Below, one piece after another: positions 61,156-62,965 of a stretch of 64,000 nucleotides of DNA (position 1 is its first letter; each line of letters begins with the position of its first letter). The stretch is taken from assembly GCA_012522415.1 (NCBI GenBank), contig JAAYKM010000032.1, positions 2,414-66,413 on the forward strand, written 5' to 3'. A program made the translations under genes and the position numbers. Origin of the DNA: Deltaproteobacteria bacterium (GTDB lineage: Bacteria; Desulfobacterota; Syntrophia; Syntrophales; JAAYKM01). The notes beneath the pieces are model-generated. The model saw only the letters and a program-made list of their open reading frames with translations, was not told the origin of the DNA and searched no databases.

Positions 61156-62836
61156 AGAAATCAAGTCAGAGGAATTTAAAAAATTGCTGTCATTGGGCGA
61201 GGAAAAGGGCTTTCTCACCTACGATGATGTGAACGATTTATTGCCCACAGAGATTGTCTCTTCCGAGCAGATCGACGATATCCTGATCCTATTCGGCGAG
61301 AAGAACATCGATATCATTGATCCCGAAAAAGAAGAAATCCCGCAGATCAAAAAGGTTGCCGAGGATCGAAGTAAGACCAAGGAAGGGAATGTCCTCGGAC
61401 TTATCTCCACGGTCGGAAAAACTGGTGATCCCGTAAAAATGTATCTTCGAGAGATGGGCCTCGTGTCCTTACTGAGCCGGGAAGGAGAAGTGGAGATTGC
61501 AAAAAAAATTGAAGATGGTCTCAAAGAAGGCATGGACTCTGTTTTCTCCTCACGCCTGTCTATTAGAGAGATAATGGACCTGGGAGAGGAGTTGCGCAGT
61601 GGTGAAGTGCGGATCAAAAACCTCGTCGATAACCTTGATGACGAGGAAGGGAGTCTCGAAGAGGATACGCAAAAAATTCGGATACTCAACCTGATCGACA
61701 AGATCGCCAACCTGGACAGAAAAAATGAGGAAATCAGAAAAAAACTCAAATCCAGGGGGCTTGATGAAGATGAAAAGGAAGCCCTCAAAGCGGGTATAAT
61801 CAAGAACCACAAGCAAATTATCCGGCATTGTCGCAAAATCCGCTTTAACCAGAAACAGATTGATCGCATGATCGGCCGGATCAAGCAGGCCTTGTCAGAT
61901 ATTGAAGCCGCTGAGGAAAAAATTCAGTCCTGCAGGGATGAATCTTGCCTGTCACGTGCCCAGTTGGAGAAACTTTGGGTGCGTATGCGTAAATTCCCCG
62001 AAGAGGAAAAAATCATCCAGCGCGAAACAGGCATCAATGCCGCGAAATTACGGCATTATGAGGAAACAATCAAGAGTGCAGACAGGGAAATAAAAAGGAT
62101 TGCCGCTGAATCCGCCCACACACCCTCATCTCTGAAAAAATTGGTAATCGCTATGGAAAAAGGAGAACGCAAGGCAGAGCGGGCGAAGCGGAAGCTTGTG
62201 GAAGCCAACCTCCGTCTTGTGGTCAGTATTGCCAAAAAATACACCAATCGCGGTTTGCAGTTTCTTGATTTAATTCAGGAAGGCAATATCGGCCTCATGA
62301 AGGCGGTGGAAAAATTTGAGTATCAGCGGAGGTACAAGTTCTCAACCTACGCCACCTGGTGGATCCGTCAGGCCATCACCCGGGCCATTGCCGATCAGGC
62401 GAGGACCATTCGTATTCCAGTCCATATGATTGAAACCATTAATAAACTGATTCGTACATCCAGATACCTTGTTCAGGAACTAGGCCGGGAACCGAACCCC
62501 GAGGAAATTGCCAACAAAAAGGGCTATCCCTTGGATAAAGTGAGGAAAGTCCTGAAGATTGCCAAGGAACCCATTTCCCTGGAAACCCCCATCGGTGAGG
62601 AGGAGGACAGCCACTTGGGAGATTTCATTGAAGACAAGAAGATCATGTCCCCCTCTGAGGCCACGATCAGTATGGATCTGGCCGACCAGACCAGGAAAAT
62701 CCTGGCCACTCTTACACCCAGGGAGGAAAAGGTTGTGCGAATGCGTTTCGGAATCAGTGAACGGATCGAATACCAGGAAGATGAAGACCGCCGCTATAGG
62801 GAAGTTGCAGGCGGTTCCGCTCTTGAAGGAGAGTAA
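61148..62836 (+). CDS. rpoD: primary sigma factor RpoD (sigma70) with an aberrant or truncated 3' end
   Basis: Regions 1.1 to 4.1 are canonical ([74 protein letters not shown]). After RMRFGI the sequence reads [26 protein letters not shown] instead of the region 4.2 HTH. Confidence 0.85.
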
Positions 62837-62965
62837 GCGTCAGGATAATCATATTGGGACGGGGCCATTCGGGTGAACCTGATAACGGGTTCCGATGAAT
62901 TAGGATTTGACACCGGGAGATAATTGTTATAACTGTCTGCGAAGTTTTTCAATCATAGGGACGTA

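Follow-up and report, generated by a model that had tools for sequence, protein, structure and literature searches.

A Syntrophales primary sigma factor, encoded next to dnaG, that is naturally without region 4.2

In bacterial promoter recognition, region 4.2 of the primary sigma is regarded as universal and nearly invariant. This region reads the -35 box, its seat on the beta flap sets the 17-bp spacer, and many activators and anti-sigmas, as well as 6S RNA, dock there. The stretch of DNA analysed here (64 kb in full, hereafter the window) contains an open reading frame for RpoD (61148..62836, + strand; 562 aa) with only regions 1.1, 1.2, the non-essential region (NER), 2, 3 and 4.1 of a group-1 sigma factor. 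The question arises whether this gene has been damaged or whether a housekeeping sigma factor can naturally end there, and, in the latter case, what reads the -35 box.

The identity of the gene can be judged from its surroundings. The primase gene dnaG (59317..61155, + strand; assigned from its ORF and the Pfam domains of orthologues) overlaps the start of rpoD by 8 nt, and among the matches listed it was found immediately 5' of rpoD in 84 of the 88 loci examined. On the 3' side lies a tRNA with the anticodon CAU (Met or Ile2; 62966..63041, + strand), already noted in the initial annotation and recovered by both ARAGORN and Rfam (RF00005, 71 bits). A tRNA(CAU) occupies the same place in 24 Syntrophales loci and most outgroup loci among the matches listed, and the gene order hisF-HIT-yqeY-dnaG-rpoD-tRNA(CAU)-CT398 is conserved. 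By this synteny, the window rpoD is the positional orthologue in the macromolecular-synthesis operon. The CT398/Zn-ribbon gene was considered as a lineage-specific partner and discarded, as, among the matches listed, 36 outgroup loci whose RpoD is canonical show the same synteny. An Rfam scan of the window detected neither 6S RNA nor any other sigma-related RNA, the tRNA being the sole match.

A MAG protein in NCBI, itself annotated as RpoD, matches the window protein at 100 % identity, and strong Pfam scores were obtained for regions 1.1, 1.2, NER, 2 and 3. Region 1.1 (PF03979, 61.7 bits) and region 1.2 (PF00140, 48.8 bits) both exceeded the gathering scores; these two regions are what separates group 1 sigmas from groups 2-4. 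Region 2 (PF04542) scored 82 bits and region 3 (PF04539) 99 bits. For Sigma70_r4 (PF04545), 17.8 bits were reached against a gathering cut-off of 24.1, and the match covered profile positions 2-27 of 50, corresponding to region 4.1 only. The NCBIfam RpoD equivalog NF004208 was passed (598 against 555 bits; profile 21-585 of 631) and TIGR02393 RpoD_Cterm was failed (326 against 354 bits; profile 1-196 of 238). When searched with phmmer against PDB, the C-terminal 127 residues aligned to residues 465-576 only of E. coli sigma70 (4jk1_X), and residues 577-613 had no counterpart. Since homology stops at 576, the -35 recognition helix is unmatched in any frame. Pfam, TIGR02393, the 4jk1_X alignment and tblastn thus agree that the helix bearing the equivalents of E. 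coli R584, E585, R588 and Q589 is absent, and they bear out the earlier description of a primary sigma of textbook form whose expected ending gives way to 26 other residues and a stop at 62836, with the region 4.2 helix-turn-helix unencoded. The canonical group-1 sequence runs to ..RMRFGI, and the 26 residues after it are unrelated and acidic. For a housekeeping sigma such an ending is, as first noted, highly anomalous. All 57 outgroup RpoDs among the matches listed are identical over a 29-residue stretch of region 4.2.

What is retained is strongly conserved. Region 2 is 91 % identical to that of E. coli (90-93 % in other full-length Syntrophales matches), a 10-residue segment with the equivalents of E. 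coli H455 and E458 is invariant in the Syntrophales alignment, and the last canonical segment, the region 4.1 remnant (62702..62755, + strand), which aligns to sigma70 up to 576, is near-invariant in 44 Syntrophales sequences. The determinants by which regions 2 and 3 recognise the -10 and the extended -10 are accordingly present. The window copy carries one unusual G-to-R change in region 2.3. Between clade members, omega over regions 2-4.1 ranges from 0.001 to 0.015 with saturated synonymous sites, and such strong purifying selection speaks for a putative role of RpoD as the essential and most abundant housekeeping sigma. That rpoD is a decaying gene on its way to a pseudogene in this lineage, as the C-terminal truncation and the G-to-R change might suggest, is very improbable in view of these omega values, an ORF unbroken at 562 aa in many genomes, and a conserved operon structure and promoter.

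A sequencing or assembly artefact, in which a short deletion plus frameshift wrecked a normal region 4.2, deserves closer attention, as the initial annotation had placed such an event around 62755-62790 and as two conserved genes on the same contig are interrupted by in-frame stop codons (TAG at 43573 in groEL; TAA at 63239 in the CT398-like gene), which indicate that the contig consensus is imperfect. On detailed examination, the alignments do not accommodate a deletion. In tblastn the E. coli residues 'DYTLEE' correspond to 'EYQEDE' of the window and the alignment runs through there, and in both tblastn and phmmer E. coli IDMNTDYTLEE pairs with 11 window residues in the correct register. It follows from this register that 'SERI' is not a leftover of 'TRERI' and that there is no internal deletion; as judged by these alignments, rpoD diverges in place from E. 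coli and stops about 22 codons early. The +1 frame fares no better. An ORF in this frame is present in the window (62559..62876), so the string once thought to resemble the recognition helix does exist, but it received zero score in tblastn against E. coli and B. subtilis region 4, and in relatives the frame is unconserved and interrupted by stop codons (loci L002, L004 and L008). With the same queries no region 4.2 was found in any frame of the window, rpoD frame 0 being the sole match. A region 4.2 supplied from downstream or from another frame, through read-through, programmed frameshift or a split gene, was likewise rejected, as tblastn was blank both in the window and in the flanks of 31 Syntrophales loci.

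The divergent acidic tail of 26 residues which replaces the helix-turn-helix (62756..62833, + strand) is conserved in frame 0 and has no region 4.2 homology by Pfam, PDB or tblastn searches. The same tail is found in 16 further 90 %-identity clusters (P0002-P0017), 80-87 % identical to the window RpoD, hence in at least 16 relatives, drawn from independent NCBI, JGI and ENA assemblies and thus from different samples and pipelines. Their frame-0 pattern reads ISERIE[YF]xE[ED][ED][DE]RR[YI]RE.., and 12 of the 16 clusters are exactly 562 aa long. The TAA stop (62834..62836, + strand) is the same codon in the 562-aa relatives; the stop position is shared by L001, L002, L004 and L008, lies one codon further in L006 and 12 codons further in L005, and the sequence past it is unconserved. 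For tail codons 536-562, dN is 0.07-0.30, dS is saturated and omega is about 0.04-0.4, with frame 0 kept through many synonymous changes; by these estimates purifying selection acts on the tail in frame 0. Taken together with the unbroken register, the interrupted +1 frame and the nil coding potential for region 4.2 in all frames, these observations leave the artefact with hardly any probability, and show the truncation of RpoD to be a conserved natural state and not a sequencing error. The tail is thus shared by relatives, but no sign that it folds as a helix-turn-helix, which the initial annotation had raised along with such sharing, was seen with Pfam, AF2 or phmmer against PDB. The AF2 model, built on a 44-sequence alignment, has a mean pLDDT of 64.5, with the tail below 50, one short helix at 545-554 and low values even for the invariant region 2; so poor a model is uninformative on the structure of the tail.

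The truncation does not stand alone in the order. Among the matches listed, region 4.2 is degenerate or absent in 24 of 24 other sampled Syntrophales loci (L009-L030 minus L024, where RpoD was unrecovered, plus L045 and the S. aciditrophicus-type L007), a sample that includes complete genomes, namely S. buswellii DM-2 (NZ_CP175563.1) and two MAG chromosomes (OY764159.1 and OY761459.1). Region 4.2 is replaced by an acidic and then basic tail in Smithellaceae and by acidic..RKLRNPSRRR in Syntrophus; the latter motif persists in proteins that have lost the recognition residues, but it is absent from the truncated clade. At the junction, order-specific conserved residues RFGIS[ED]R were observed, and regions 1.1-4.1 are under extreme constraint across Syntrophales. 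In the tree, Syntrophales is monophyletic with the truncated clade nested inside. These comparisons indicate that the recognition helix was lost several times and in different ways within the order, and that the truncation in the window represents the end point of an order-wide relaxation of region 4.2. The window encodes a genuine dnaG-linked primary sigma of a Syntrophales lineage, naturally without this region. The literature searched yielded no paper on unusual sigma factors or promoters in Syntrophus, Smithella or Syntrophales at large.

The promoters, on the other hand, have kept the element that region 4.2 would read: a perfect TTGACA is retained at three housekeeping promoters, whose spacers measure 15-16 bp where those of outgroups measure 17-18 bp. 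The yqeY-dnaG-rpoD promoter (58686..58713, + strand) consists of TTGACA (58686-58691), a 16-nt spacer and TATCTT (58708-58713), with no TGn. Here GGTTGACAAAA is invariant in the window and five clade genomes amid unalignable surroundings, and among the matches listed 17 Syntrophales loci show TTGACA-N16-TAnnnT, whereas 22 outgroup loci have N17. The tRNA-Met promoter (62907..62933, + strand) has TTGACA (62907-62912), a 15-nt spacer, TG (62925-62926), one further nucleotide n, and TATAAC (62928-62933); all three blocks are invariant in seven genomes, in which the 'n' position is variable. TGn is present in 8 of 8 truncated-clade sequences (the loci of seven relatives and the window) and in none of 59 promoters elsewhere (18 from other Syntrophales and 41 from outgroups, among the matches listed). 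A third independent -35 promoter, that of groES-groEL (42738..42765, + strand), combines TTGACA with a 16-nt spacer and TATTAT, also without TGn; its spacer is N16 in four of the six nearest GroEL relatives and mostly 17-18 elsewhere. As orthologous promoters of related genomes were compared, only few independent evolutionary events lie behind the spacer and TGn contrasts; with this in mind, the comparisons indicate that the TTGACA boxes are under purifying selection within the truncated clade itself, with spacers that fall 1-2 bp short of those in sister orders, and that the extended -10 TGn at the tRNA-Met promoter was apparently gained by the truncated clade alone, presumably as a compensation.

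Since an RpoD without region 4.2 is expected to depend on the -10 element and TTGACA is nevertheless retained, -35 reading must have passed to another reader. The explanation we favour, with a probability of roughly 0.6, is that the protein is a functional primary sigma cut to regions 1.1-4.1 and that the -35 box is read by something else, either a second sigma or a trans-acting factor. The truncated RpoD would still bind core RNA polymerase, with region 4.1 and one short conserved amphipathic segment probably holding its C-terminus there. Its regions 1.2, 2 and 3 would serve to recognise and melt the -10 element, and its region 3.0 to read TGn. Alone, it would resemble engineered sigmas without region 4.2, which work at promoters with an extended or a strong -10, and -35 recognition would have been handed to a reader other than region 4.2, probably already in the ancestor of Syntrophales. 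The yqeY-dnaG-rpoD promoter of the clade is a point against this explanation: its -35 is perfect, but its -10 is weak (TAaCTT) and TGn is missing, so that a sigma without region 4.2 is expected to make poor use of it.

As to the nature of the other reader, one could think of a separate protein on the core or on the RpoD remnant, perhaps a stand-alone sigma-4-like helix-turn-helix, which reads TTGACA at 15-16 bp and renders region 4.2 dispensable. Such a delegation would fit the domain-specific relaxation, in which region 4.2 alone decays, as well as the spacer shift across the order, the new junction residues RFGIS[ED]R and the persistence of RKLRNPSRRR without recognition residues, and it has generally known precedents in B. 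subtilis SigO-RsoA and T4 AsiA/MotA. However, no candidate protein was found, as tblastn detected no sigma-4-like ORF in the window or flanking rpoD in 31 Syntrophales loci; the truncated clade is without RKLRNPSRRR, so the docking site would have to lie elsewhere; and the proposal is less parsimonious than a second sigma. We therefore hold it to be rather unlikely. The same low standing applies to its broadest form, a speculative one, in which Syntrophales including the cultured Syntrophus would have rewired promoter recognition as a whole, with TTGACA read at 15-16 bp and not 17, either by a sigma-4-like subunit acting in trans or by a reader repositioned on the core, so that region 4.2 was free to decay in each lineage, up to full truncation in the clade of the window.

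Somewhat better placed, though still tentative, is the idea that two sigmas share the work. The TTGACA boxes may be read, and most -35-dependent transcription carried, by a further group-1 or group-2 sigma whose region 4.2 is intact, leaving the dnaG-linked RpoD as a -35-independent sigma or a core competitor at extended or strong -10 promoters. Selection on TTGACA in lineages whose RpoD lacks the recognition helix would be accounted for, and the fact that region 4.2 decayed separately in several lineages points to a redundancy dating from the ancestor of the order. A takeover of this kind, however, predicts relaxation over the whole of RpoD, whereas regions 1.1-4.1 are extremely constrained across the order, and a canonical region 4.2 on the beta flap predicts an optimum of 17 bp, unlike the 15-16 bp observed. 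Weak evidence against it also comes from a pattern-limited scan, in which none of the 57 canonical rpoD loci among the matches listed was labelled Syntrophales and those that could be checked are all dnaG-linked orthologues of other taxa; within the window, tblastn detected no second sigma gene.

If the favoured explanation of a functional RpoD cut to regions 1.1-4.1 is true, the order would constitute a natural experiment on RNA polymerase rewiring, since a whole free-living order appears to have its housekeeping sigma degraded or lost in region 4.2 and yet maintains perfect -35 boxes at an altered spacing. Syntrophales includes cultivable species with complete genomes. There are practical consequences as well: annotation pipelines call such proteins 'RpoD' with the missing domain unflagged, and promoter predictors trained on 17-bp spacers are expected to perform poorly in Syntrophales.

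Compared with canonical group-1 sigmas (sigma70 of E. coli, chain X of PDB 4jk1, and RpoDs from sister orders within Desulfobacterota), the window RpoD shares regions 1.1, 1.2, the non-essential region, 2, 3 and 4.1 as well as the dnaG-rpoD-tRNA(CAU) synteny; it differs in having no equivalents of residues 577-613, that is the region 4.2 helix-turn-helix and the C-terminal residues contacting activators and the flap. Truncations of E. coli sigma70 are said to have been used by Kumar et al. in 1993 in defining extended -10 promoters. With Taq sigmaA(1-390), which is without region 4.2, the holoenzyme is active at promoters that have a strong -10 (PMC3173786). The domain content of such engineered sigmas is essentially that of the window RpoD, and they need no -35 contact at promoters with an extended -10 (TGn) or a strong -10; the tRNA-Met promoter of the truncated clade has gained TGn. 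They are, however, laboratory constructs, whereas the truncation described here is natural, conserved and selected in genomes which keep their -35 boxes. Among natural systems, B. subtilis SigO-RsoA is a two-subunit sigma, phage T4 AsiA/MotA is a case of sigma appropriation, and clostridial SigI-type sigmas have a non-canonical C-terminal domain. In all of these, upstream recognition is performed by something besides the canonical region 4.2 of the same polypeptide, as is proposed here, although in Syntrophales the partner is a postulated one. None of them is known to involve the chromosomally encoded housekeeping sigma of an entire order of free-living bacteria.

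The rpoD gene of the window (61148-62836, forward strand, with a TAA stop at 62834-62836) lies 3' of dnaG (59317-61155, forward strand), which overlaps its start by 8 nt, and encodes a protein of 562 residues. Regions 1.1, 1.2, 2 and 3 and the non-essential region scored well over the Pfam thresholds, and the NCBIfam full-length RpoD equivalog NF004208 was passed at 598 versus 555 bits, the match ending at profile position 585 of 631. Sigma70_r4 reached 17.8 bits against a cut-off of 24.1, covering only the first half of the model, which corresponds to region 4.1, and the C-terminal-domain model TIGR02393 was failed at 326 versus 354 bits (positions 1-196 of 238). 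Aligned to solved structures, the last 127 residues correspond to residues 465-576 of E. coli sigma70 and to none beyond. When the 64 kb of the window were searched by tblastn in all six frames with region 4 of E. coli and of B. subtilis, the only match was to frame 0 of rpoD, where 'DYTLEE' pairs with 'EYQEDE'; neither a region 4.2 outside that frame nor a second sigma gene was found there. On these profile, structure and tblastn results, the absence of region 4.2 noticed in the initial annotation is therefore correct, and the helix-turn-helix that reads the -35 box is not encoded. The full-length model, regions 1.1-3 and synteny place the protein in the RpoD family, and the one defining feature that it fails is that concerning the -35 box. 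Residue 395 in region 2.3 (62330-62332) is R in the window and G in all 43 aligned Syntrophales relatives and in E. coli.

The exact protein is present in NCBI as RpoD of a metagenome-assembled genome (MAG), and the same tail occurs in at least 16 further 90%-identity clusters, 80-87% identical to the window RpoD, with the pattern ..RFGISERIE[YF]xE[ED][ED][DE]RR[YI]RE..; the length is exactly 562 residues in 12 of the 16 and 560, 563 or 574 in the rest. Seven tail-bearing loci from different samples (L001-L006 and L008; JGI, ENA and NCBI) all share the order His_biosynth-HIT-yqeY-dnaG-rpoD-tRNA(CAU)-CT398/Zn_ribbon-dapF. Between clade members (Nei-Gojobori), tail codons 536-562 show dN of 0.07-0.30 with saturated dS, giving an omega of roughly 0.04-0.4, which resembles that of the non-essential region, while regions 2-4.1 show 0.001-0.015. 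The tail is ancient, translated and under constraint.

An artefact had been proposed in the form of a short deletion with a frameshift, reading 'SERI' as a remnant of 'TRERI'. This pairing is wrong, as the BLAST and HMMER register sets the segment against E. coli IDMNTDYTLEE, and the internal deletion inferred from it is therefore wrong as well. The +1 frame, said to resemble the recognition helix loosely, is not conserved and carries stops in three relatives (L002, L004 and L008), and nucleotide alignment with relatives shows frame 0 kept through many synonymous changes, with the same stop codon in four loci. Register, shared tail, frame-0 conservation and the broken +1 frame together rule out frameshift, deletion or assembly error, and the artefact interpretation is rejected.

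In the database, each of the 120 best relatives was Syntrophales-type, including a Syntrophus aciditrophicus protein (P0046, 580 residues), and all diverge from the canonical helix-turn-helix after RMRFGIS[ED]R. A scan with one genome per species gave 80 rpoD loci among the matches listed. RpoD was readable in 23 of 24 Syntrophales/Syntrophaceae/Smithellaceae loci (L024 was not recovered), among them two MAG chromosomes and S. buswellii DM-2, whose genome is complete, and region 4.2 is degenerate or lost in all 23. The tails are semi-canonical (..SRERAKQIESGAxRKLRNPSRRR), Syntrophus-type (acidic, then FPGPIETGAYRKLRNPSRRR), Smithellaceae (an acidic stretch, then a lysine-rich end) or, in one locus (L027), long and acidic. 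Among the matches listed, region 4.2 is essentially unchanged in sequence in 57/57 outgroup loci (Desulfobacterales, Syntrophobacterales, Desulfarculales, Myxococcota, Binatia, Nitrospinales and others). Since dnaG lies directly upstream in 84/88 loci, that is, in all with enough flank, the rpoD loci are positional orthologues and not paralogues. In a neighbour-joining tree of the conserved core the Syntrophales are monophyletic, and the truncated clade (the window with L001, L002, L004, L005, L006 and L008) is nested among long-tail lineages; the recognition helix was therefore lost more than once. Region 2 is 90-93% identical to that of E. coli in full-length Syntrophales matches (91% in the window) and region 4.1 is nearly invariant across the order; the relaxation is confined to region 4.2.

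The rpoD-tRNA spacer was footprinted in seven clade genomes, in which synonymous sites are saturated. Three invariant blocks on the forward strand stand in poorly conserved surroundings upstream of tRNA(CAU) (62966-63041), namely TTGACA at 62907-62912 (-35), TG at 62925-62926 and TATAAC at 62928-62933 (-10); the spacer is 15 nt, and the base separating TG and TATAAC varies freely, the signature of an extended -10 (TGn). The yqeY-dnaG-rpoD operon promoter (58686-58713, forward strand; GGTTGACAAAA-N16-TA(a/t)CTT) is invariant in six genomes and without TGn, and that of groES in the window (42738-42765, forward strand) reads TTGACA-N16-TATTAT. In counts that reuse orthologous promoters, and represent a few selection-maintained evolutionary events rather than dozens of independent observations, the tRNA(CAU) spacer is 15 in 17/25 and 16 in 4/25 Syntrophales versus 17-18 in 35/41 outgroups; the dnaG-operon spacer is N16 in 17 Syntrophales loci and the window versus N17 in 22 outgroup loci and N16 in two; the groES spacer is N16 in the window and 4/6 nearest GroEL relatives and mostly 17-18 in more distant ones; the pooled TTGACA-N-TAnnnT counts have their maximum at 16 for Syntrophales (19, with 3 at 17) and at 17 for outgroups (25, with 5 at 16); and TGn at the tRNA(CAU) promoter is found in 8/8 truncated-clade sequences, including the window, versus 0/59 others. 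The conserved TTGACA and the spacer and TGn comparisons argue that a base-specific TTGACA reader exists today in lineages whose RpoD lacks the recognition helix, that this reader is placed 1-2 bp differently with respect to the -10 element than in sister orders, and that in the lineage with the fullest loss one promoter at least has become stronger in the way that a sigma lacking region 4.2 would call for.

Some neighbouring features may be recorded here. The tRNA 3' of rpoD may be an elongator Met or, like E. coli ileX, an Ile2 tRNA, and the order dnaG-rpoD-tRNA(CAU)-CT398-like zinc-ribbon is kept far outside Syntrophales (Desulfobacterales, Syntrophobacterales and others). A 24-25-codon ORF (MRMKGKVLPARFNMETRVSAEACL, 63075-63149; ribosome-binding site GGGAGA), conserved in 7/7 clade genomes and apparently co-transcribed with the tRNA, precedes a strongly conserved intrinsic terminator hairpin at ~63154-63185. 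In the CT398/Zn_ribbon_9 gene, which has its TTG start at 63212 and was called as an ORF from 63335, codon 10 (63239-63241) is an in-frame TAA; six relatives have GAA, GAT or GCA there (GAA in four), and the residues between the TAA and ATG 63335 are still conserved in frame. This TAA is the second single-base nonsense codon on the contig, the other being a TAG (43573-43575) in the essential chaperonin gene groEL (43153-44787), where all near relatives have CAG (Q); this single C-to-T change may stem from an error in the consensus, may mark a true nonsense allele or a pseudogene, or may be read through. A CIRCE operator (TTAGCACTC-N9-GAGTGCTAA) lies between groES promoter and gene in many distant relatives (L100-L163) and in neither the window nor its nearest relatives (L089-L095); the gene just 5' of groES (42071-42508) belongs to the RseC/MucC family ('positive regulator of sigma E').

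Regions 1.2, 2 and 3.0 are enough for recognition of the -10 and TGn elements and for melting, and region 4, from its seat on the beta flap, sets the 17-bp spacer. The window protein is shown, at the level of sequence, to be a conserved, selected, dnaG-linked group-1 sigma without region 4.2, and would act as a -35-blind primary sigma; its anchoring to core is probably preserved by region 4.1 and the conserved segment EDEDRRYRE, predicted with low confidence as a short helix. The -35 box would then be read by something other than RpoD. A second sigma with intact region 4.2 is a tentative candidate, more parsimonious than a delegated reader, though it poorly explains both the relaxation of region 4.2 alone in RpoD and the shift of the spacer optimum. 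The two would be accounted for by a delegated or trans-acting factor, which is nevertheless doubtful; no sigma-4-like sequence was found in the window or adjoining rpoD in 31 Syntrophales loci.

What the sequences show is that a housekeeping sigma has lost its -35-reading domain naturally and that this loss is conserved, within an order-wide decay of that domain and coupled to -35 boxes kept at a shortened spacer, and there is a substantial chance that a new mode of promoter recognition is hidden here. No report of region 4.2 loss in Syntrophus, Smithella or Syntrophales was found by full-text literature searches, and a mention in the S. aciditrophicus genome paper is possible. An engineered sigma without region 4.2 forms an active holoenzyme at strong or extended -10 promoters (PMC3173786). 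By analogy with such laboratory truncations, the window RpoD should behave alike. SigO-RsoA, T4 AsiA/MotA and SigI-type C-terminal domains are natural cases in which upstream recognition is delegated, and they stand as analogies to the Syntrophales case rather than as tested relationships.
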